From the NCBI GenBank assembly GCA_964403155.1, contig CAYOEG010000002.1, forward strand, positions 8,147 through 72,146: DNA of 64,000 nucleotides, written 5' to 3'. Below the pieces are notes generated by a model that did no database searches, was not told the origin of the DNA, and saw nothing but the letters and a program-made list of their open reading frames with translations. Shown here one piece after another: positions 7,298 to 62,383 of this stretch. Numbering within the stretch: position 1 is the first letter of the stretch; each line of letters starts with the position of its first letter. Origin of the DNA: an uncultured Candidatus Saccharibacteria bacterium (GTDB lineage: Bacteria; Patescibacteriota; Dojkabacteria; SC72). Both the position numbers and the translations under genes were made by a program.

Positions 7298-9097
7298 ATG
7301 AAAAACCTTACATACAAAGAGATTAGAGATCGATATATAGAATTTTTCAAAAAGAACGGACATACAGAAATCCCAAGTGCTCCACTCGTACCAGAAAACG
7401 ATCCATCGGTACTCTTTGTTAATGCAGGTATGTTCCCATTGGTGCCCTTTTTGCAAGGAGAGAAACATCCTAATGGAACAAGATTGGTCGATTCACAAAG
7501 ATGTGTAAGAACAGGAGATATAGAAGAAGTAGGAGACACATACCATTACACAACTTTTGAAATGCTTGGGAACTGGTCACTCAATGACTACTTCAAGAAA
7601 GATGCAATATCTATGACTCTAAAGTTTTTTATTGAAAAGTTAGGATTTGATATTAATAAAGTATATGCAACTGTTTTTAAAGGAGATGATACTGCTCCAA
7701 AGGATACTGAATCTATCGAGGTTTGGACGAATCTTTTCAAAGAGTATGGCATTGATGCAAGGGCAGAAAACAAAATAATAGAGAATGGAAAGGAAGACAA
7801 CTGGTGGGAACTAGCTACTGGTGGTCCATGTGGTCCAGATTCTGAAATATTCTATGAAATAGGTGGGAAACTTGTAGAGGTTGGTAATAATGTCTTTATG
7901 GAATATCTCAAGGTGGGCAATGAATACAAGCCATTGGGAAGGCATAATGTAGACTTTGGCGGAGGATTGGATAGATTAGCTTCAATATGCCAAGGGGTTA
8001 ATGGTGCATATGAGACAGATATTTACAGACCCGTATTTGATGCGGTAAAGAAGCTATCCAAGAATGATATTCTAGAATCCCAAAGAGTCATAACTGACCA
8101 TATTAAGGCTGCTACGTGGATAATTATGGATGGTGTAGAACCAAGTAAGACAGAACAAGGTTATATCCTTAGACGTTTAATTAGAAGAGCAGTAAGACAT
8201 GGTAAAAAGCTTGGCATTGATGGATTATTTACTAGAAAGATTGGAGAGATAGCTATTAATCAATTCTCCCCTATATGGAACAAATTAGAGACAGACAGAG
8301 AAAGAATTTTAAATACATTGGAAGAGGAAGAGAAGAAATTTAGTAAAACATTAGACAATGGTTTAAAAATGTTTAAACAGTATTATCCTGATACAACAGA
8401 AAATGGGATGATAAAAACCACAAAAATTAATACCGAGATGAGTTTTGGTGAAGCGGCTTTTTATTTTTACGAAACATATGGTTTTCCATTAGAGTTATTC
8501 ATTGAAGAACTGACCCCTTGGTTGAGAAAACAGAATCTTTCTACACATGAAGAAGAAATTCGTATTCAATTCGAAGAAGAGCAGAAAAAGCATCAAGAAC
8601 TTTCGAGAACGTCATCTGCAGGACTCTTTAAAGGAGGCCTCGCAGACACATCAGAAATATCTACAAAATATCACACTACAACCCACCTACTCCTTGCAAC
8701 ACTAAGAAAAATACTCGGAGACCAGGTATATCAAAAAGGAAGTAATATTACTCCTGAAAGATTAAGATTTGACTATCCAGCAGATACAAAACTAACACCA
8801 GAACAAGTAAAACAAATAGAAGAAATGATAAATGAACAAATACAAAAAGGATTACCAGTAACATACGAAGAATTCCCCAAAGAAGAAGCATTAAAACTAG
8901 TACCATATGCAGCATTCTCTGAAAAATATGGCGATATCGTAAAAGTATATACCATAGGAGATAAATCAAACCCCTACTCCATAGAAATCTGCAATGGGCC
9001 ACACGTACAAAACACATCAGAACTAGGCAAATTCAGAATAGCTAAACAAGAAAATGTGGCAGCAGGTGTAAAAAGAATTAAAGCTGTATTAGAATAG
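7298..9097 (+). CDS. alaS: alanyl-tRNA synthetase, short form lacking the C-terminal C-Ala domain
   Basis: Class II AlaRS catalytic core (FVNAGMFP, RCVRTGDIEEVG, GNWSLNDYF); editing-domain HxxxH (HTTTHLL) and CxxxH (CNGPHV) motifs; 599 aa versus about 875 in typical bacteria. Confidence 0.85.
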   Translation: MKNLTYKEIRDRYIEFFKKNGHTEIPSAPLVPENDPSVLFVNAGMFPLVPFLQGEKHPNGTRLVDSQRCVRTGDIEEVGDTYHYTTFEMLGNWSLNDYFKKDAISMTLKFFIEKLGFDINKVYATVFKGDDTAPKDTESIEVWTNLFKEYGIDARAENKIIENGKEDNWWELATGGPCGPDSEIFYEIGGKLVEVGNNVFMEYLKVGNEYKPLGRHNVDFGGGLDRLASICQGVNGAYETDIYRPVFDAVKKLSKNDILESQRVITDHIKAATWIIMDGVEPSKTEQGYILRRLIRRAVRHGKKLGIDGLFTRKIGEIAINQFSPIWNKLETDRERILNTLEEEEKKFSKTLDNGLKMFKQYYPDTTENGMIKTTKINTEMSFGEAAFYFYETYGFPLELFIEELTPWLRKQNLSTHEEEIRIQFEEEQKKHQELSRTSSAGLFKGGLADTSEISTKYHTTTHLLLATLRKILGDQVYQKGSNITPERLRFDYPADTKLTPEQVKQIEEMINEQIQKGLPVTYEEFPKEEALKLVPYAAFSEKYGDIVKVYTIGDKSNPYSIEICNGPHVQNTSELGKFRIAKQENVAAGVKRIKAVLE

Positions 9098-19952: not shown

Positions 19953-19987
19953 ATCCATACATGGGCTTTATTCTCCCATGTATGGAT
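19953..19987. terminator. bidirectional intrinsic terminator between convergent recF and aspS/asnS
   Basis: Perfect 13-bp inverted repeat ATCCATACATGGG-ctttattct-CCCATGTATGGAT followed by TATTTGGGG. Confidence 0.6.
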
Positions 19988-19996
19988 TATTTGGGG

Positions 19997-21316
19997 CTAT
20001 GGAGTCAATCGCTTCACTCCTCTATAAATATATGTAACCTCTCTAACATTCTTAACCTCAAGAAGTTGCATTAATATTCTTGTCGGGCCAGGGGCAAAAC
20101 CCCCATGAGGAGGACATCCATATTCAAAGAATTTTAGATAACTTCCAAAATCCTCTAGCTTGAATCCCTTTTCCAGAATTTGTGCTTTAAGAACCTCGTA
20201 TCTATGTTCCCTGATAGCACCACTAGTAATCTCTAACCCCTTATACAGCAAGTCGAAGCTTTTAGTAAATTGAGGCCTACCCTCATATCTCATACTGTAA
20301 AATGCTCTCGAAGAAGTTGGATAATCATAGATGAAAACGAATCCATGAGAATACTTCTCTTGAATGTATTGACCTAAGGCCCTTTCCTCTTCTGGGGATA
20401 TATCATCAACCTTTTCACTCTTAACTCCAAGCTTTTTCAGAAGACTTTTTGCCTGTGTGAAAGACATTCTTTGGAAAGGCATCTTCGGGATCTTTACTTT
20501 CACCTTGTACTCTTCTTGTATCTCCTTTGAATGGCTATGCTTAATCTCCTTTAGCATTTTTACAATCATTTTTTCTTCTTCCTGCAAAAGCTCTTCAACG
20601 GATTCTACGAACGATAGCTCAACATCGTACATTGTAAACTCGGTATCGTGCCTTGAGGTAAAAGATGGGTTTGCTCTAAATACAGGACCTACCTCAAAAA
20701 CTTTTTCTAGCCCAGAAGCCATCGCCATTTGCTTGTATAGTTGAGGAGATTGAGCAAGAAAAGCTTTCCTTCCGAAGTATTTTATCTCGAAAAGTTCTGA
20801 ACCAGACTCTGTTGATGTAACAGATGTCTTAGGAGAGTGTATCTCAATATATCCCTCTTCTATACAATGCCTTCTGAAGGCACTTTCCATTGTAGTCCAA
20901 ATCTTAAACACCAAACTACTTCTAGGTTTCCTCAGATCTAACCATCTGTAATCCAATCTTTTGGAGAGTGTTGTTTTACCATCAGATTTTTCAACTACTG
21001 GAATAGGTAGAGACGCCATTGGTTCCGAAAGGATTTTTACCGATTCTACTTCTATCTCATATCCCGATGGAGCTTGTTTTTCCTGTTTTACTAAGCCCGT
21101 AAGTTCTACTACAGATTCTATCTTTATCTGCTTCAAACTCTTAACAAGTTCTTTTTTCAGGACAACACACTGGATCGCTCCCGTAATATCTCTGATAATT
21201 AGAAATCCTATTGCGCCTTGCATTCTTACTGTTTGTACCCAGCCCTTAAGCAATATTCTTTCTCCAATCTTTTCTTTCATTTCTTTTGTATATGTTCTTT
21301 TCATTTTTATATTCAT
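19997..21316 (-). CDS. archaeal-type aspartyl/asparaginyl-tRNA synthetase (class IIb)
   Basis: OB-fold N-domain; KRLDYRWLDLR; class II motifs FRANPSFTSRHDTEF and GGFAPGPTRILM; 439 aa. Confidence 0.85.
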   Translation of the reverse strand: MNIKMKRTYTKEMKEKIGERILLKGWVQTVRMQGAIGFLIIRDITGAIQCVVLKKELVKSLKQIKIESVVELTGLVKQEKQAPSGYEIEVESVKILSEPMASLPIPVVEKSDGKTTLSKRLDYRWLDLRKPRSSLVFKIWTTMESAFRRHCIEEGYIEIHSPKTSVTSTESGSELFEIKYFGRKAFLAQSPQLYKQMAMASGLEKVFEVGPVFRANPSFTSRHDTEFTMYDVELSFVESVEELLQEEEKMIVKMLKEIKHSHSKEIQEEYKVKVKIPKMPFQRMSFTQAKSLLKKLGVKSEKVDDISPEEERALGQYIQEKYSHGFVFIYDYPTSSRAFYSMRYEGRPQFTKSFDLLYKGLEITSGAIREHRYEVLKAQILEKGFKLEDFGSYLKFFEYGCPPHGGFAPGPTRILMQLLEVKNVREVTYIYRGVKRLTP

Positions 21317-21319
21317 AAA

Positions 21320-21640
21320 ATATTAATTAGTAAATTTGTAAGTTGATAATATGTCCTCCTGTCGGAGGATTATTTTTTCTATTATTTAAATTGTGTATAT
21401 AACAAAAAACACCCATGTACTAAAATCATTAAATAATTTCAGTACAAGGGTGTTTAGATACACGGTGCCACCTTGTTTTAGATAAATATTACTATCTATC
21501 TCTTACAAACCTACTCTTGGTGAAGATATAGGTTTAGAGCTATTACAGGCTCACCTGTGAGGTTCTACTTACTTTCGCTTTCTTCCTCAAGCTCATCTGT
21601 GTTTGCAGAATCATTGCTGTATATAAAGATTATACTACTT
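21320..21640 (-). promoter_or_regulatory. T-box riboswitch leader of the aspS/asnS gene (promoter TATAAT about 21628, T-box sequence 21461-21477, terminator 21401-21455)
   Basis: Minus strand reads AAACAAGGUGGCACCGUG, matching the T-box consensus AAUUAGGGUGGNACCGCG. It sits immediately 5' of a long imperfect hairpin (AACACCCuUGUACUgAAA...UUUaGUACAuGGGUGUU) followed by UUUUUUGUU, about 85 nt upstream of the ATG. GGUG of the T-box can pair with CACC of the terminator 5' arm to form the antiterminator. Confidence 0.6.
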
Positions 21641-21686
21641 TTATTAAGAAACTGAAAATAAAGGACTATTTAAAAGTGAATCTCAA

Positions 21687-22736
21687 CTACGAGTTTTTCT
21701 TTGCATTGATAATTTTTATTGGTGCATGAAGCATCATACAACGTATACTACCCTGCCTAATTAATGGATAATACAACATTGGAATCTGTGTCGTGTAAAC
21801 TTGATCTTCCCCAACTATTTCATTTAAAAGATCAAGAAGTATTTCATCTCCACTTGTAACAATAACACTACCATTTGCAAATTGCTCAAAATTTAGGGCA
21901 CAGGGAAGGGATTGATGCTCTCTTTGTACTATGATCGGGATAACATCAATCTTATCACATGCTTCCTTTATAACTTCCAAATATTTCCCATATGGGGGTT
22001 TATTTGTAGAAACATAATTCTCATCCAAGAGGAGATAGTCCCGCCTATCTTTTCCCCTAATAAAAGCTGATACTCTGTCTAGATGATCCGTCTGGAAATA
22101 TTTTTCCGTACCAGATTGGATATCAATTTCCGCCGTCAATGGTGCTGGAAGGTAAGCAAAGTCAAATCTATCAGACAAGTTTTTAATATCATTAATATAA
22201 CTTTCTCTTGATTCACAAAACCATCTTGGATCCGTAGTTAGCACTTTCTTTCCTACTCTTAAAACTCTCCCCCCTTCTCCGAGTGGAGATCTTTTGCATG
22301 ATAAATCCGGAATGGACAAATTAGATTCAGAGCTAATATAGACATCATCATCAAAATTGACAAACATATCTCTAGGAAAGAATACTCCTCCTATATCATC
22401 GTCTAGTGCAACACCACGAATCTCCATACTTTTCATAATTCTGATAACAAGCTGTTCATCCATCCATTCTTTATGAGAGATAATTATTCGAAAAGGTATA
22501 TCCATCCGTTTCATCGTGTATAAAATAGAAGTGTATTCCATTAAAAACTTTTCTGCCAAAAAATCCCTATCCATAGAAACTTCAGACAGAGCGGTTACCC
22601 ATTGTTCCGATCCAACAGGTACGATAAATACATCCTTCTTGCTCTCCTCTTTTACAGGTTCTTTAAAGATTGGGGCGGAAAATAATATAACTTCATTGTT
22701 TGGAACAGGATCCTTTGAGTCTAGCGGTTCTCCCAT
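21687..22736 (-). CDS. hypothetical protein, possible pentein-fold (amidinotransferase/arginine-deiminase-like) hydrolase
   Basis: C-terminal GSIRCMMLHAPI resembles the catalytic-Cys motif (GGxRCMSxP) at the C-terminus of pentein enzymes. The N-terminal region has no recognisable motifs. Confidence 0.3.
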   Translation of the reverse strand: MGEPLDSKDPVPNNEVILFSAPIFKEPVKEESKKDVFIVPVGSEQWVTALSEVSMDRDFLAEKFLMEYTSILYTMKRMDIPFRIIISHKEWMDEQLVIRIMKSMEIRGVALDDDIGGVFFPRDMFVNFDDDVYISSESNLSIPDLSCKRSPLGEGGRVLRVGKKVLTTDPRWFCESRESYINDIKNLSDRFDFAYLPAPLTAEIDIQSGTEKYFQTDHLDRVSAFIRGKDRRDYLLLDENYVSTNKPPYGKYLEVIKEACDKIDVIPIIVQREHQSLPCALNFEQFANGSVIVTSGDEILLDLLNEIVGEDQVYTTQIPMLYYPLIRQGSIRCMMLHAPIKIINAKKNS

Positions 22737-23703: not shown

Positions 23704-24462
23704 CTACCCTATTATCTTCTTTCTAAAATCCCCATCAAAGAACTCAATTTTCCCTCTCTTGTTATTATTCCATAACCTCGCTATCTCAGGTCTATGTAAA
23801 GATATAATCATAAACAAAAGTTGAAGAATGAAGAATTTGAAATTAACAATCTTGAGAAACCAATTACTCCTCTTAGAAACAAATACCCTACTCACTAACA
23901 ACTCACCCTTAACACCATATACCTTCCTTAACCAATCATTCTGAGAATAGATATAGTTAAGATATTTTTCATTGTATATCGGAATCAAATACATCAACTC
24001 ATGAAAATTAAAAATATCACTCTCAAACACCAAATCTCTTTCCTCGCAAATCAAATTGACACAAAACTTATCCTTAACCACATCCCCATTTCTAATCCTC
24101 CTAATCCTATGATGAAAAAGATTTTTTAATGTAATAATTCCACGATATATCCAAGAAGTATAGTTCTTAACAACAACAAACACATCAATATCATCCTCTT
24201 CCTTTGCAAAACCTGCACCCACAGAACCAGAAATACCAACAAACTTTAATAACCCAAAAGCCTTAAGATATTTAATACCATTCTTCGCAATATCAACCTT
24301 CCTTACAACCTCAACATTCTTAACCTCTTCATCGAAAGATTGATCATTACTCTTAACAAAACCTTTTCCCCAGATATATTTAGCCTGTTCTCTTGAAACT
24401 CCTAATCCCATCCTCAATCTAAACTTCCCTAGTTCTAACAATGCTTTTGTTTCTACTCCCAT
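23704..24462 (-). CDS. Pol-beta-superfamily nucleotidyltransferase domain protein
   Basis: GISGSVGAGFAKEEDDIDVFVVV fits the hG[GS]x9-13Dh[DE]h NTase motif; 252 aa with a helical/hydrophobic C-terminal half. Size and layout are reminiscent of ANT(4')-type or minimal NTases. Confidence 0.5.
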   Translation of the reverse strand: MGVETKALLELGKFRLRMGLGVSREQAKYIWGKGFVKSNDQSFDEEVKNVEVVRKVDIAKNGIKYLKAFGLLKFVGISGSVGAGFAKEEDDIDVFVVVKNYTSWIYRGIITLKNLFHHRIRRIRNGDVVKDKFCVNLICEERDLVFESDIFNFHELMYLIPIYNEKYLNYIYSQNDWLRKVYGVKGELLVSRVFVSKRSNWFLKIVNFKFFILQLLFMIISLHRPEIARLWNNNKRGKIEFFDGDFRKKIIG

Positions 24463-25330: not shown

Positions 25331-25981
25331 GTGGATCAAAATACAAGGGCAAGAGCTATTGCCTCAACACAAGATGCATTAGAAGTTAGAGATATCCGAG
25401 AGGATCTTGTTGTAACTAAAAGCGGAAGTGTGGCAATAGTAATTCAAACGTCCGCCATTAACTTTGACCTTCTAGCCGAGTATGAACAGGATAACAAAAT
25501 ATATGCCTTTGCAGGACTTCTAAATTCACTCAATTTCCCCATTCAAATCTTGATCCGAACAAAGCGAATAGATATCACTTCATATGTTGACTATCTTAAA
25601 TCACAAAACGAAAGAGAGATGAGCGAAGGGTTAAGAAAACAATTAGAAATCTACACCCTATTTATACAAAACCTCATCGTACAGAATGATGTCTTAGACA
25701 AAAATTTCTTCATAGTAGTACCTTACAACCCTGGGCTTACTTTAAACGATGTAGGTTTCCTAAAAAAGAACAGTAAAAAAACAAAAGAAGAGGAAGAAAA
25801 ATATCAGAACATGGAGATAGACCAATTAGTGGAGAAAGGTAAAATATACCTCTATCCTAAGAGAGATCATATACTCAAACAACTCTCAAGAATGGGATTA
25901 TTTGGTCATCAATTAAACAATACTGAATTACTTTCTGAATTCTATACAATATATAACCCCGAGGAAGAAGAAAATGCCTGA
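25331..25981 (+). CDS. VirB4 N-terminal-domain-like protein (separate ORF, translationally coupled)
   Basis: GTG start 1 nt after the upstream stop. LVVTKSGSVAIVIQTSAINFDLLAEYEQDNKIYAFAGLLNSLNFPIQILIRTKRIDI matches the N-terminal segment of Gram-positive-type VirB4 (PrgJ/TcpF/Orf16 family). Overlaps the next ORF by ATGCCTGA. Confidence 0.45.
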   Translation: MDQNTRARAIASTQDALEVRDIREDLVVTKSGSVAIVIQTSAINFDLLAEYEQDNKIYAFAGLLNSLNFPIQILIRTKRIDITSYVDYLKSQNEREMSEGLRKQLEIYTLFIQNLIVQNDVLDKNFFIVVPYNPGLTLNDVGFLKKNSKKTKEEEEKYQNMEIDQLVEKGKIYLYPKRDHILKQLSRMGLFGHQLNNTELLSEFYTIYNPEEEENA

Positions 25982-28403
25982 AGAACTAAACAACTACAAC
26001 CGAACACTTGATAGCAAAATCTCGCAAGAGCTTAAATCTCAGACTGAGAAACTACAGTCCGTCGGAGAGAAATATCAAACATTCAGACAAGAACTAAAGA
26101 AAGAGATGGAGAATGGCAAAGCGAAAGAGGAAAAAGATAAATTCAATGACCCCCTGAAAACAGATGAAGAACCAAAACCAAAGAAGAATCCAATTTTGAA
26201 GCTCCTAGATAAGCTAGCTGAAAAAATAAATGGAAAAAAATCTCTTGAAGAAACAACTACTTCGGGAAACAAGATTGAAGATGATGATATAACAATGCTG
26301 GATAAAAATATGTCCATCAAAGATATCATTGCACCACTGGATATGGAACTCGACTTTAACGACATGCAGATGGGGGACTATTTCTTCAGAGTATTTAAAG
26401 TCTCTGGTTACCCTCGTATCGTTGGACCAAATTGGTTATCACCAATTATAAATTTTGAGCATTCCTTACGTATTAGTACCTTTTACTACCCAGTTGAATC
26501 TAAAGTCATTCTCGAAAAACTTAAGCGAAAAATCGGAGAGATGGAAGCCACACTCTACTCTCAAATAGAGGATCGAAAAGTTGTAGATCCTACACTTAAA
26601 GTTGCGCTCTCTGATGCACAACAGTTGCAAGACTCAATTGCAGAAGGTTCAGAGAAATACTTCCACTACGGAATGTACATCACAATATATGCACCTAACA
26701 AGGATCTATTAGAGAAATATTCTAGAAATGTAACTTCGACCCTAGCTGCGATGAATGTGGTTGCCATACCAGCAATTTTGCAACAAAATGAAGGATTTCT
26801 GAGTACACAACCTTTGGGATTAGACAAACTATACTTCACTAGGAACATGGATACCACCTCCCTTGCCACAACCTTCCCATTCGTGACTTCAGAGTTAACA
26901 ATGGAGAAGGGAATTATGTATGGCGTAAACATGCATAACAAAAGCCTGGTCATATTTGATAGATTCCAGTTAGAGAATGCAAACACCGTAGTATTTGCAA
27001 AAGCAGGTGCAGGTAAAAGCTATTTTGTAAAACTAGAAATTCTTAGGAGTCTAATGCTGGGAACCGAGATCATCATTATAGACCCAGAAAGGGAATATGA
27101 CGAACTTTCCAAAGCAGTAAACGGACTTTACATCTCATTCTCACAGGACAAAGGAAGCAAGATGAATCCATTTGAACTCTCAGGAATTAAAGACGAGGGT
27201 GATGACGAGCTAAGAATGAAACTACTTGCATTACATGGTTTCTTCAAAATACTTTTCGGGGGACTTACTAATGTTGAAGAATCCATTTTAGACAAAGCAT
27301 TAATACTCACTTACAGAGAGAAAGGTATTACCTTTGACCCTGCAACACAGACGAAACAGCCTCCTCTACTTGAAGATATGTACAAAGTACTTAAGGGTAT
27401 GGCCGAGAATGAAGCTCATGATTTAGCCAGAAGAATGGAGAAATATATAATCGGTAGTGGTGCAGGAATATTCAACGAAGCAAGTAATTTTGAAATTAAT
27501 AATCCATTTACAGTATTCAGCATCAGAGACTTACAAGAAGAACTAAAACCTCTCGCTATGTACCTAATGCTTGATTTCATATGGACAAAAATTCGAAAAG
27601 ATCAGAAGAGGAGAATCCTTGTTGTAGATGAAGCTTGGTATATGATGCAAAGTTTGGACTCCGCAAATTTCATGTATTCAATAGCTAAACGTGCAAGAAA
27701 GTATTATCTCGGCTTAACAACAATTACTCAGGATGTCGCAGATTTCCTAAATAATGATATGGGGAAGGCGATTATATCTAACTCTTCAATGCAGGTGCTT
27801 ATGAAACAAAGCCCCTCTGCTGTAGATAAGCTACAAGCAGTATTTAATCTGTCTGATGGAGAGAAGAATTTCTTACTAAGTTGCGATAAAGGACAAGGAC
27901 TGTTCTTTGCAGGGTCAAACCATGTAGGCATACAAGTTATATCTAGCCAAGCAGAACACGAGCTTATAACCACAGATCCTAAAGAACTAGAGCAACGCCG
28001 TGCAAGGTCTGGCATGACTGAGACAAGAACCATAGAAGAATTAGCCCAGATATTTGAACCTCCAGCAGAGCAACAACCTATGAGAGATGGGAACTCCTTG
28101 GAAAGGCAACAACAGGTAATACGGGGAGCAATATACAAACGAAGAGATGATCAGGTACAGATTGAAAAAGAAAGAGAACAGTATCAAAAAGAATTAGAAG
28201 AAAGATTAAGACAACAGGAGCTTGAACTTAACCCAGAAAAGAGAATATCCCAACAAACTTTTCTTGATAGTTTAAAAGAGAATACTGTTTCTGGGCAAGT
28301 TATAAAATCAAGGGAAGATATACAAAAGGGTCGAACACATATAACTCCACAAGGCCCAGTTTCAAGCTATACAAATAATGGGACAGGCAACAACCAACAA
28401 TAA
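25974..28403 (+). CDS. VirB4/TraC/TrbE-family T4SS ATPase
   Basis: Walker A AKAGAGKSYFV, Walker B RILVVDEAWYM, conserved N-domain segment YFFRVFKVSGYPRIVGPNWLSPI; a KE-rich low-complexity insert of about 110 aa at the N-terminus; 809 aa. Confidence 0.8.
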   Translation: MPEELNNYNRTLDSKISQELKSQTEKLQSVGEKYQTFRQELKKEMENGKAKEEKDKFNDPLKTDEEPKPKKNPILKLLDKLAEKINGKKSLEETTTSGNKIEDDDITMLDKNMSIKDIIAPLDMELDFNDMQMGDYFFRVFKVSGYPRIVGPNWLSPIINFEHSLRISTFYYPVESKVILEKLKRKIGEMEATLYSQIEDRKVVDPTLKVALSDAQQLQDSIAEGSEKYFHYGMYITIYAPNKDLLEKYSRNVTSTLAAMNVVAIPAILQQNEGFLSTQPLGLDKLYFTRNMDTTSLATTFPFVTSELTMEKGIMYGVNMHNKSLVIFDRFQLENANTVVFAKAGAGKSYFVKLEILRSLMLGTEIIIIDPEREYDELSKAVNGLYISFSQDKGSKMNPFELSGIKDEGDDELRMKLLALHGFFKILFGGLTNVEESILDKALILTYREKGITFDPATQTKQPPLLEDMYKVLKGMAENEAHDLARRMEKYIIGSGAGIFNEASNFEINNPFTVFSIRDLQEELKPLAMYLMLDFIWTKIRKDQKRRILVVDEAWYMMQSLDSANFMYSIAKRARKYYLGLTTITQDVADFLNNDMGKAIISNSSMQVLMKQSPSAVDKLQAVFNLSDGEKNFLLSCDKGQGLFFAGSNHVGIQVISSQAEHELITTDPKELEQRRARSGMTETRTIEELAQIFEPPAEQQPMRDGNSLERQQQVIRGAIYKRRDDQVQIEKEREQYQKELEERLRQQELELNPEKRISQQTFLDSLKENTVSGQVIKSREDIQKGRTHITPQGPVSSYTNNGTGNNQQ

Positions 28404-60136: not shown

Positions 60137-62383
60137 ATGCCCAGGAAAAAGAAAAAAGAGCCAATCACAATCAAAAGTAACGAACTAAAAATCTTGTTCG
60201 GGATTGTATTGTTTGTACTTGGAATTACAATCACATTAGCACCATTCATACCACAAGATTCGGTGCTTTTTGACACTATCACTTTACAATTAGGATATTC
60301 TGCTATCTCTTGGGGACTTTTACTCATATACATATCATTCTTTTTGCTTACCAAAGGAAAGAGGTTTAAATCTCTTAGACAAGTAATCGGGCTGTTATTA
60401 TTCTCAGCATGTCTCAGTACATTGCTTTCATTCTGGCAGACTCCAGAACAACTTGGTAGTAGTGAAGCTCTTCGAGGAGCCGGAGGAGAGATTGGGAAAT
60501 TCTTCCATATGACTCTAAATGGGACATTTGGGAATTTGATAGAGATAATAATAGTATTAGTACTTCTAGTGGTAGCATTCTCCTTGATTACTGGAACTAC
60601 ACTTGAGCAGATAATGGAATTCGTAGAGTCCCCAATGAAAAAAGATGGCGAAAAAGAGAAATTTAGCCTAGGAGGATTATTCTCTGGTATCAAGATTCAG
60701 GGTGGAGAAGACGGAGAGAAAGAAGCAAGACTTACAGTCCCTATGGAAGAATTAGGTAAAGAACCAGAGATTAGAATGTACGGAGAAGATAGTAAGAAAG
60801 ATGAGGATGTATACCAAGAGCCACAGATCAAGACTGTAAATGAGGATAATTTTCCCGAGAATATTCCTGATGACCAAACCAGGGCAGATGAACTTGGGGA
60901 ACCTTCAAGACCAAAATACACTAATTGGACATTCCCAAACATTGACTTACTACAAGAAGGCGAGGTTCGAAAACAAGACGAGAAACTTTACAGAACTAAA
61001 GCGGAAGTTATTCAGAGCACACTTAAGAACTTTGGAATAGAGGCAAAGGTTGTAGAAATTGCTGTAGGACCAACTGTTTTAAGATTCTCTCTAGCTATTA
61101 CAGTTGGAACAAAAGTATCTAGAATTAAAAATCTTAGCAATGATTTAGCCTTAGCATTGGCATCCCAGACATCTTCAGTAAGGGTTGAGGCCCCTATTCC
61201 GGGAACATCATATGTCGGCGTTGAGATTCCAAATCCAATTCCTAACTATGTGTATACAAGAGATATGGTAAAGAAATTAAGACAAGAAGCAGAAAGATAT
61301 GAACTACCTTTGATACTAGGAAAAGATATCACTGGGAAGACAGCAATTCGAGATCTTAACAAGATTCCACATCTGTTAGTAGCAGGAGCAACAGGTACTG
61401 GAAAATCTGTAGCTATAAACTCCTTGATATTAGGCCTTTTGATGACAAAAACTCCTGACGAAGTTAAATTCATAATGATCGATCCTAAGATGGGTGTTGA
61501 GATGGCTGCATACAATGGTATCCCTCATCTCCTAACCCCAGTTATCACTGATATGGAACTTGTTGTTAATGCTCTTCAGTGGGTTATTAACGAAATGATG
61601 AAGAGATACAGACAACTCAAACAGATGCATGTTAAGAAATTAACAGAATACAACAAGGCACTTGGATATACTGCCATGCCATACGTTGTAGTCGTCATCG
61701 ATGAAATGGCAGATCTAATGCTCACATCTGGAGTTGATGTTGAAGGTAAAATTCAAAGACTTGCCCAGATGGGTAGAGCCGTTGGTATACATCTGATTCT
61801 TGCTACACAAAGACCTACTGTAAACGTAATCACAGGATTAATCAAAGCGAATGTCCCAGGAAGAATGGCGTTTGCAGTTGCTACAGCTATGGACTCAAGA
61901 GTTATTTTGGACGATACTGGTGCAGAAACACTTCTTGGTAATGGTGATATGTTGTTTAAAGACCAAAGCACTCCAAAAGCAATTAGAATCCAAGGCACAT
62001 TTACGTCAACAGAAGATAGTGAAAATATCATTAATGCAATCAAGGAACAAGTCGCAGAAGAAGAAGTTGAATATTCAGAAGATCTTCTCAATGCCATTGA
62101 GAAAGGTAGCAATGACAGTACAGGAGTAAACAAGGGAGGTTCTGAAAGAGATCCAGATTTCCCATTAGCTCTAGAAATTGTCATATCGAATCAGAAAGCA
62201 TCTTCCTCATTCCTTCAAAGAAAGATGAAAATCGGTTACAACAAGGCAGCAAGATTAATAGATGAGCTTTATGAAGCAGGTGCTATTGGCCCTCAAGATG
62301 GTAGCAAACCAAGACAAGTATTGGTATCTTCTCCCAATCAAATATTAAAAACTGGCGATGATGGTGACGTACAGAGTGAATAA
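60137..62383 (+). CDS. ftsK: DNA translocase FtsK/SpoIIIE
   Basis: N-terminal 4-TM domain, linker, motor domain with Walker A AGATGTGKS, C-terminal gamma (KOPS-binding) winged helix LQRKMKIGYNKAARLIDEL. Confidence 0.9.
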   Translation: MPRKKKKEPITIKSNELKILFGIVLFVLGITITLAPFIPQDSVLFDTITLQLGYSAISWGLLLIYISFFLLTKGKRFKSLRQVIGLLLFSACLSTLLSFWQTPEQLGSSEALRGAGGEIGKFFHMTLNGTFGNLIEIIIVLVLLVVAFSLITGTTLEQIMEFVESPMKKDGEKEKFSLGGLFSGIKIQGGEDGEKEARLTVPMEELGKEPEIRMYGEDSKKDEDVYQEPQIKTVNEDNFPENIPDDQTRADELGEPSRPKYTNWTFPNIDLLQEGEVRKQDEKLYRTKAEVIQSTLKNFGIEAKVVEIAVGPTVLRFSLAITVGTKVSRIKNLSNDLALALASQTSSVRVEAPIPGTSYVGVEIPNPIPNYVYTRDMVKKLRQEAERYELPLILGKDITGKTAIRDLNKIPHLLVAGATGTGKSVAINSLILGLLMTKTPDEVKFIMIDPKMGVEMAAYNGIPHLLTPVITDMELVVNALQWVINEMMKRYRQLKQMHVKKLTEYNKALGYTAMPYVVVVIDEMADLMLTSGVDVEGKIQRLAQMGRAVGIHLILATQRPTVNVITGLIKANVPGRMAFAVATAMDSRVILDDTGAETLLGNGDMLFKDQSTPKAIRIQGTFTSTEDSENIINAIKEQVAEEEVEYSEDLLNAIEKGSNDSTGVNKGGSERDPDFPLALEIVISNQKASSSFLQRKMKIGYNKAARLIDELYEAGAIGPQDGSKPRQVLVSSPNQILKTGDDGDVQSE

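Follow-up and report, generated by a model that had tools for sequence, protein, structure and literature searches.

The 64-kb stretch of DNA examined in this study (here called the window), which belongs to an AT-rich genome (36% GC) of the Dojkabacteria lineage within the candidate phyla radiation (CPR), encodes on its minus strand an archaeal-type aspartyl-tRNA synthetase (AspRS; positions 19997 to 21304). In the 370-bp intergenic spacer preceding this gene (21317 to 21686), we identified a leader that is likely to be a tRNA-Asn-specific T-box riboswitch, controlling by transcription attenuation an AspRS predicted to be non-discriminating. The initial annotation of this region had proposed a T-box leader with alternative antiterminator and terminator folds, which is borne out by the match to the Rfam T-box model RF00230 (E = 9.6e-10) and by covariation. 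The elements from which that proposal started, i.e., the T-box sequence, the terminator with its U-run, the TATAAT box (21634 to 21629) and the 370-bp spacer, are all located as it had reported.

Architecture of the leader

On the minus strand, read 5' to 3', the leader is preceded by a promoter-like site (21658 to 21629) with the -35 box TTTTCA (21658 to 21653), an 18-nt spacer and the -10 box TATAAT, giving 10 of 12 matches. The promoter scan is not significant by itself (3 sites versus 2.7 expected); in the relatives, the -10 box lies at the same distance from the kink-turn (K-turn) as in the window, and transcription would start near 21622, a few nucleotides before Stem I.

Stem I is ultrashort (21618 to 21590): above a basal helix AGC/GCU, a K-turn leads into a helix of 4 bp (UCUG/CAGA), which is capped by an apical loop of 6 nt, CAAACA (21605 to 21600). 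The K-turn, known here from sequence alone, has the bulge AAU and a tandem G.A formed by GA 21612 to 21611 and GA 21594 to 21593, both dinucleotides being invariant in the 34 leaders of our alignment. According to the RF00230 alignment, the AG bulge, the distal loop and the double T-loop platform are all missing from Stem I. The Stem I with a specifier that the initial annotation anticipated is thus conserved and covarying, but it is not canonical, the whole distal half being absent.

Stem II (21589 to 21558) comprises a 5-bp lower helix UGAGG/CCUCA, an S-turn with the strands AAGAAA (21584 to 21579) and AAGUAGAA (21570 to 21563), and a short capped upper helix; its UAGAA is invariant in 34 of 34 leaders. 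It is followed by the Stem IIA/B pseudoknot (21557 to 21537), which includes an F-box-like GUAAUAG and in which IIA is CAG/CUG and the loop GAGC (21552 to 21549) pairs with GCUC (21540 to 21537). The position of Stem III is occupied by a variable region (21536 to 21480) with two hairpins in the minimum free energy fold (21536 to 21506 and 21501 to 21480), after which a purine-rich AAAA runs into the antiterminator helix A1. The relatives present one or two hairpins in this region, which is too variable for alignment.

The T-box sequence AAACAAGGUGGCACCGUG lies at 21478 to 21461, where the T-box/antiterminator sequence typical of the class, AAGGUGGCACCGUG (21474 to 21461), contains the bulge UGGCACC. 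The antiterminator (21476 to 21444) is formed by the helices A1 (ACAAGG/CCUUGU) and A2 (GUGU/ACAC) around this 7-nt bulge (21470 to 21464), and not by the GGUG/CACC pairing put forward initially. The UGGC of the bulge, which is UGGC in 29 of the 34 leaders and UGGU in the other 5, would pair with the 3' end GCCA of the tRNA. Finally, the intrinsic terminator (21455 to 21401) is a 22-bp hairpin (21455 to 21407) followed by UUUUUUGUU, with six U residues at 21409 to 21404.

Conservation and covariation among relatives

Relatives were collected by a metagenome scan, which provided 80 loci with AspRS identities of 45 to 77%; in a scan of genome contigs, the matches listed were mostly distant AspRS loci, the best with 59% identity. 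The sequence GGUGGNAC occurs 60 to 170 nt upstream of AspRS in about 40 of the 80 metagenome loci. The leaders share the K-turn, the 4-bp helix, an apical loop of 5 to 7 nt and the Stem II S-turn AAGAAA/AGUAGAA, followed by the IIA/B pseudoknot, one or two variable hairpins, an antiterminator with UGGC or UGGU and a long hairpin with a U-run. The distal Stem I domain was found in none of 39 leaders.

In an alignment of 34 distinct leaders (alignment A2), we counted 31 proposed pairs, pseudoknot included. Standard pairs occupy 97.2% of the cells, versus 83% in shuffled alignments and 31 to 43% with slid partners; compensatory changes occur in 21 of the 31 pairs, and none of 500 shuffles equals the alignment on any measure. 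In particular, the Stem I helices are paired in 95 to 98% of the cells, with compensatory changes in 4 of 7 pairs, and the lower helix of Stem II in 98.8%, with compensatory changes in 5 of 5 pairs. For the IIB pseudoknot helix, compensatory changes affect 3 of 4 pairs (GUUC/GAAC, GAGC/GCUC, AAGC/GCUU and GUAC/GUAC), and for the antiterminator helices A1 and A2, paired in 98 to 99% of the cells, 6 of 10. Thus, every aligned helix covaries, including the pseudoknot. The consensus fold of the alignment returned exactly the structure supplied and was not counted as independent evidence.

Detection by covariance models

A default Rfam scan of the whole window, which applies the gathering threshold, gave no matches. 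In E-value mode, RF00230 matches the leader end to end on the minus strand (21623 to 21443), with 48.7 bits and E = 9.6e-10 for the 501 nt searched, corresponding to about 1e-7 when scaled to the whole window. The family model to which the initial annotation had referred the leader therefore recognizes it with a significant E-value, but below the gathering score of 93, which accounts for the empty default scan. The low score arises because 72 positions of the Stem I model are gone and are replaced by 2 nt. None of the 16 CPR leaders tested reaches the gathering score, whereas it is passed by canonical T-boxes that precede genes of this enzyme family in Firmicutes and Mollicutes (L056 with 102 bits and L054 with 95 bits). 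The further Rfam matches in the spacer, namely miRNA precursors on the terminator hairpin, Hammerhead_3 (E = 0.07) and Aar (E = 0.2), all reflect chance similarity to hairpins.

A covariance model built from alignment A2 (R1), the seed of which includes the window sequence, has a single match in the 64-kb window, i.e., this leader, with 138 bits. Among 81 CPR loci, R1 identified 38 full-length copies, all directly upstream of AspRS, and one more copy was found in a metagenome-assembled genome (MAG) labelled Dehalococcoidales (L003). Two AAC leaders (L106, 1229 to 1300; L162, 1306 to 1370) carry an extra hairpin in the 3' strand at the base of Stem I, in the K-turn region, which lowers their model scores to 57 to 65 bits.

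Specifier codon

In the 34 leaders of alignment A2, the triplet in columns 23 to 25 is AAC in 19 cases, GAC in 14 and GAU in 1; five leaders beyond the alignment add two AAC and three GAC, so that the 39 leaders comprise 21 AAC, 17 GAC and 1 GAU. Of these 39 triplets, 38 end in C, and in 32 of the 34 leaders of the alignment a purine comes after the triplet (30 A and 2 G; the remaining 2 leaders have C). Since the loop triplet is limited to AAC, GAC and GAU, the specifier of the window reads AAC (Asn; 21603 to 21601), followed by the conserved purine A at 21600. The two codons alternate among very close relatives, with AAC in L087 and L092 and GAC in L088 and L103. The AAC-A of the window (21603 to 21600) fits an AspRS predicted to charge both tRNA-Asp and tRNA-Asn, and the codons seen correspond exactly to the two tRNA substrates of an enzyme with this predicted specificity.

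Both specifiers considered in the initial annotation turned out to be structural elements. In the GAU of CAGAUGAGC, the G and A belong to the 3' strand of the upper Stem I helix and the U to a non-canonical pair of the K-turn, and the same position reads GCC, GAG or GUC in relatives. The AAC of UAGAACC belongs to the invariant S-turn strand of Stem II, which is the same even in GAC leaders.

Terminator and expression platform

The terminator hairpin of the window has a free energy of -26.7 kcal/mol (z = -7.8), and none of 200 shuffled sequences is as stable. Its 5' arm (21455 to 21444) reuses the 3' strands of A2 and A1, and the terminator and the antiterminator, which is weak alone, are mutually exclusive (-26.7 versus -8.1 kcal/mol). 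An equivalent hairpin with a U-run, overlapping the antiterminator and starting 13 to 45 nt after GGUGG, is present in 35 of 38 leaders, with free energies between -18 and -43 kcal/mol. In the window, the six U residues end about 100 nt before the start codon. In the 11 relatives that use a Shine-Dalgarno (SD) sequence, the latter lies downstream of the U-run, outside the hairpin; in the genome considered here, an SD-like motif at -18 to -6 was found in 7 of 50 genes. On sequence grounds, the leader is a transcription attenuator.

The regulated enzyme and its predicted specificity

The regulated gene encodes a protein of 435 amino acids from the ATG at 21304, or of 439 amino acids from an alternative in-frame ATG at 21316; a database protein of 435 amino acids is 100% identical, making the ATG at 21304 the probable start. 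The protein matches NCBIfam NF003483, "aspartate--tRNA(Asn) ligase" (500.6 bits, cutoff 353), and TIGR00458 (410 bits, cutoff 368), and scores far under the cutoffs of both asnS models. The best PDB matches are the archaeal AspRS 3nel/1b8a and the T. thermophilus AspRS2 1n9w, and the AspRS of T. kodakarensis aligns with E = 1e-102. The length of about 435 residues, the absence of a GAD insertion and the QSPQ motif (with QSPQLYKQ conserved) are hallmarks of the archaeal type. The nearest named relative, with 77% identity, is from Candidatus Dojkabacteria (formerly candidate division WS6, CPR), followed at about 60 to 65% by Collierbacteria and other CPR. By its sequence, the regulated gene is an archaeal-type AspRS, and not an asparaginyl-tRNA synthetase (AsnRS). 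The choice between AspRS and AsnRS, which the initial annotation expected the specifier to decide, is therefore a false dichotomy, since an archaeal-type AspRS (NF003483) stands under an Asn specifier.

We presume that the substitution K85P or W26H makes T. kodakarensis AspRS non-discriminating; a literature search for the mutants gave nothing relevant. Proline, at residue 79 in the regulated enzyme, occupies the position aligned with K85 in 40 of 40 leader-bearing enzymes versus 17 of 33 leaderless relatives, and Q or H the position aligned with W26 in 35 of the 40 leader-bearing enzymes. Like the Asn and Asp specifiers of the orthologous leaders, these residues are indirect support for the prediction that the regulated AspRS is non-discriminating and would load Asp onto tRNA-Asn, to be amidated afterwards. 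It is in this case that an Asn specifier in front of an AspRS gene makes sense, and such control is the logic expected of a non-discriminating AspRS.

As a separate observation, class II motif 2 of the AspRS is FRANPS, with Asn or Asp, across the CPR clade (alignment A1; residues 209 to 214 of the window protein) and not the usual FRAE. FRANPS occurs in CPR enzymes with and without the leader, and FRAE is kept in the second AspRS of the window and in that of T. kodakarensis.

Only one of two AspRS paralogues has a leader

A second archaeal-type AspRS gene, 44% identical to the regulated one at the protein level, lies at 1 to 931 on the minus strand and is cut by the edge of the window. It presents Asp at the W26-equivalent position and Ala at the K85-equivalent position. 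Its spacer to the divergent gene at 995 measures 63 bp and holds promoter-like boxes only, with no leader and no match to R1. The proposal of the initial annotation that only one of the two AspRS-type genes has a T-box leader stands. The paralogue is 74% identical to proteins of Saccharibacteria MAGs in two loci (L021 and L026), which are likewise devoid of the leader.

In several CPR relatives, a second archaeal-type AspRS (34 to 38% identical; 451 to 510 bits with NF003483) is located immediately downstream of the T-box copy, starting at 2898 in L106, 2806 in L162, 1314 in L121 and 2738 in L122, indicating that the presence of two archaeal-type AspRS genes per genome is recurrent in CPR. The two paralogues are adjacent in those relatives and 19 kb apart in the window.

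Proposed mechanism and alternative explanations

In the mechanism that we favor, transcription would start near 21622, and the nascent leader would fold the K-turn and the 4-bp stem, presenting AAC-A in the apical loop. The S-turn of Stem II, placed by the K-turn and the IIA/B pseudoknot, would clamp the duplex between the codon and the anticodon of tRNA-Asn (GUU), standing in for the missing contact with the tRNA elbow. If the tRNA is uncharged, its 3' GCCA would pair with the bulge UGGC and stabilize the antiterminator (-8 kcal/mol) against the terminator (-27 kcal/mol), allowing RNA polymerase to read through into the AspRS gene. A charged tRNA could not dock, in which case the terminator would form and transcription would stop at the U-run (21409 to 21404). 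The binding of tRNA and the readthrough are what we infer from the sequence of the leader. Both tRNA-Asn and tRNA-Asp carry G73.

Several observations weigh against this mechanism. A terminator coupled to an ultrashort Stem I is mechanistically unexpected, because the field ties transcriptional T-boxes to a long Stem I (PMC7583486), and the RF00230 score of 48.7 is about half of the gathering score of 93. The U-run is interrupted in two relatives (L104 and L109), and in three others (L086, L091 and L099) the AUG lies 1 to 6 nt after the U-run; in these few relatives, there may be an effect on translation. Furthermore, no tRNA-Asn or tRNA-Asp gene was found in the window or in 60 loci, so that the pairing with anticodon and discriminator rests on general knowledge, and neither gatCAB nor asnS nor an asparagine synthetase gene (asnA or asnB) is among the 25 open reading frames (ORFs) of the window that were scanned, so that the tRNA-dependent Asn pathway is assumed.

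It is unlikely, but worth weighing, that the T-box acts on translation, alone or besides transcription, with the "terminator" hairpin serving as a sequestrator of the initiation region. This would agree with the link so far drawn between an ultrashort Stem I and translational control (PMC7583486; class II of the database TBDB), as well as with the AUG found 1 to 12 nt after the hairpin in L086, L091, L099, L126 and L135 and with the interrupted U-runs of L104 and L109. However, the hairpin of the window, with six U residues behind it, stands some 100 nt upstream of the start codon, 35 of 38 leaders keep a hairpin with a U-run, the 11 SD-using relatives have their SD outside the hairpin, and an SD precedes only 7 of 50 genes here. 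A specifier read in another frame, either ACA (Thr) alone or AAA (Lys) overlapping AAC in CAAACA, appears very improbable. ACN (ACA, ACC or ACG) does follow a variable first base in 38 of 39 leaders, AAAC occurs in the window, L087, L090, L098 and L106, and the C. acetobutylicum NT-box offers a precedent for a T-box with two codons (PMC4052509). Nevertheless, the GAUG of L115 encodes Asp in the NAC/NAU frame and Met in the shifted one, the shifted frame puts a paired C of the stem, and not a free purine, 3' of the codon, and AAA is lacking in most leaders, including those of the closest relatives (L001, L083 and L084). Moreover, the first position varies only between A and G, which gives exactly Asn or Asp and fits the regulated enzyme, while Thr would be biologically senseless for this gene.

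That the leader is a decayed relic of a canonical T-box deprived of the distal Stem I, with the gene expressed constitutively or from a second promoter past the terminator, is just as hard to credit as the shifted frame. The score below the Rfam threshold, the 72 model positions that are gone and a weak promoter-like site after the terminator (21397 to 21369) could be read in this sense. A relic would not covary, though, and compensatory changes are found in every helix; the truncated architecture is kept in 38 of 81 loci, with AspRS identities of 54 to 77%, and the K-turn, the S-turn, the T-box bulge and the position of the specifier are conserved. A chance likeness to the T-box consensus beside an ordinary terminator might have been suspected in an AT-rich genome (36% GC) with an empty default Rfam scan. 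This explanation is already refuted by the comparative data, given the RF00230 E-value of 9.6e-10 and a leader that dozens of relatives conserve, with covariation, in every case directly upstream of the orthologous gene. Attenuation of the AspRS transcript by a tRNA-Asn-specific T-box is thus the interpretation that we retain.

Comparison with known T-boxes

With canonical class I T-boxes (RF00230), the leader shares the T-box sequence, the UGGN bulge, the antiterminator/terminator pair, the K-turn, Stem II and IIA/B and a downstream aminoacyl-tRNA synthetase gene. Unlike them, it has neither an internal specifier loop with S-turn nor the AG bulge and distal loop, which in canonical T-boxes stack on the tRNA elbow, and in place of a long Stem I only 4 bp and a 6-nt loop stand above the K-turn. 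Three T-boxes of Firmicutes and Mollicutes (L056, L054 and L067) sit, as here, on an archaeal-type AspRS, the specifier of L067 being GAC-A.

It has been proposed that the fast capture of tRNA by transcriptional T-boxes depends on the platform of the long Stem I, that a short Stem I is tied to reversible translational control and that, in the absence of the elbow platform, the K-turn, the S-turn and the pseudoknot become essential (PMC7583486). Similarly, TBDB treats T-boxes with a truncated Stem I as class II, i.e., translational (PMC7778990). The actinobacterial ileS T-boxes (M. smegmatis, M. tuberculosis and Nocardia farcinica; 6UFG and 6UFM; PMC7583486), reportedly described by Sherwood et al. 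in 2015, have in common with the leader a Stem I made of a K-turn and a short helix, a specifier in the apical loop followed by a purine, a C as third base and no double T-loop platform. With 21618, where the pairing of Stem I begins, taken as position 1, nucleotides 16 to 18 of the window leader form the specifier, followed by the purine A19, and the 5' strand of the S-turn is G37-A38-A39, opposite the 3' strand G-U-A-G-A; the numbering of N. farcinica ileS is the same (specifier 16 to 18, A19 and G37-A38-A39; PMC7583486). The decoding module thus appears to agree with the ultrashort type of Actinobacteria at every nucleotide, except that the upper Stem II is 16 nt shorter in the window. The S-turn of Stem II imposes a C at the third codon position, the "C rule" (PMC7583486), in agreement with the third-base C of 38 of the 39 leaders. 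Different from the leader of the window, which combines a terminator, an AspRS and an Asn specifier (Asp in relatives), the actinobacterial ileS leaders have an SD sequestrator, act on translation and read Ile codons. The leader therefore carries the class II decoding module and not the class II platform, as neither an SD sequestrator nor an SD is present in the window leader. Its terminator is of the Firmicutes style.

Another T-box relevant here is the NT-box of C. acetobutylicum, reportedly described by Saad et al. in 2012 and 2013, which is said to have a long Stem I, overlapping Asn and Glu codons and an operon including an amidotransferase. It is likewise an Asn-codon T-box on the tRNA-dependent route to Asn-tRNA-Asn and not on an AsnRS (PMC4052509; PMC4206432). 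In contrast to the NT-box, the window has a single codon in the apical loop and a monocistronic AspRS.

Full-text searches of the literature found no report of T-boxes in CPR or Patescibacteria, Sherwood 2015 and Saad 2012/2013 being known via reviews. The components of the leader are all known; what we could not find described is the combination of the ultrashort module with an intrinsic terminator, the host lineage and the toggling between Asn and Asp on a non-discriminating AspRS.

Genomic context

The regulated AspRS is monocistronic, the next gene, recF, being convergent. The 58-bp gap between recF and AspRS contains a 13-bp perfect hairpin (19953 to 19987; ATCCATACATGGG ... CCCATGTATGGAT), which is probably a bidirectional terminator. 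The upstream neighbor of the leader, the ORF of 349 amino acids (21687 to 22736), which lies across the spacer from AspRS, is without NCBIfam match; in the Dojkabacteria relative with 77% identity (L001), a tRNA-Lys(UUU) gene (2588 to 2663) lies directly upstream of the leader promoter.

Between the terminator and the start codon of AspRS, a perfect hairpin UCCUCC-GACA-GGAGGA (21369 to 21354, minus strand; -10.3 kcal/mol, z = -3.9) follows an A-run and scores terminator-like on the plus strand. A weak promoter-like site (21397 to 21369) lies just upstream of it, just past the terminator. The pattern UCCUCC-GNNA-GGAGGA is kept only in four Dojkabacteria leaders, i.e., those of the window, L001 (2936 to 2951), L083 and L084. 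The hairpin might stabilize the 5' end of a second transcript, terminate antisense transcription or serve as a protein site. A role as a sequestered SD or as the start of a short upstream ORF (AUU) is unlikely, as the genome hardly uses SD sequences and the length of the ORF is not conserved. The AUG of the T-box gene has very AU-rich surroundings and no SD.

At many genes of the window, a TATAAT-like box is placed 6 to 9 nt before the ATG; examples are the genes starting at 995, 2960, 7298, 17090, 37641 and 50076 on the plus strand and at 24462 and 52609 on the minus strand. Together with the scarcity of SD-like motifs, this arrangement suggests that mRNAs are normally leaderless in this genome, in which case the T-box gene would be among the few with a long 5' untranslated region. 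The gene for the short form of alanyl-tRNA synthetase (7298 to 9097, plus strand; 599 amino acids, NF002436) lacks a leader, its promoter box being only 8 nt away from the ATG, so that T-box control is not general for the aminoacyl-tRNA synthetase genes of this genome. Elsewhere in the window, on the plus strand, 25974 to 28403 and 60137 to 62383 encode a VirB4-like conjugal-transfer ATPase (NF045971; 381 bits, above the cutoff) and an FtsK/TraB-like DNA translocase, possible components of a machinery for type IV secretion or DNA uptake.

Implications

The leader would represent a minimal transcriptional tRNA sensor of about 215 nt, and a natural, conserved family combining an ultrashort Stem I with an intrinsic terminator offers a test of the view that transcriptional control calls for a long Stem I (PMC7583486). 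Because leaders of this class score about half of the Rfam gathering threshold, they are invisible to standard pipelines, and model R1 would recover them. Moreover, the specifier acts as a built-in functional label: the occurrence of Asn and Asp codons on orthologous leaders argues that the archaeal-type AspRS serves both tRNAs, suggests that these organisms, whose biosynthesis is very reduced, make Asn by the tRNA-dependent route and offers a reason why pairs of AspRS paralogues recur.

It is possible to hypothesize, although we would not yet call it probable, that CPR carry a widespread, unannotated class of terminator T-boxes without an elbow platform, in which the single apical-loop specifier, standing before orthologous genes for non-discriminating AspRS, has repeatedly switched between Asn and Asp. 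If this were true, contact with the tRNA elbow would not be required for co-transcriptional tRNA sensing, and, in genomes with two paralogues, the T-box-bearing AspRS copy would be dedicated to feeding tRNA-dependent asparagine synthesis.

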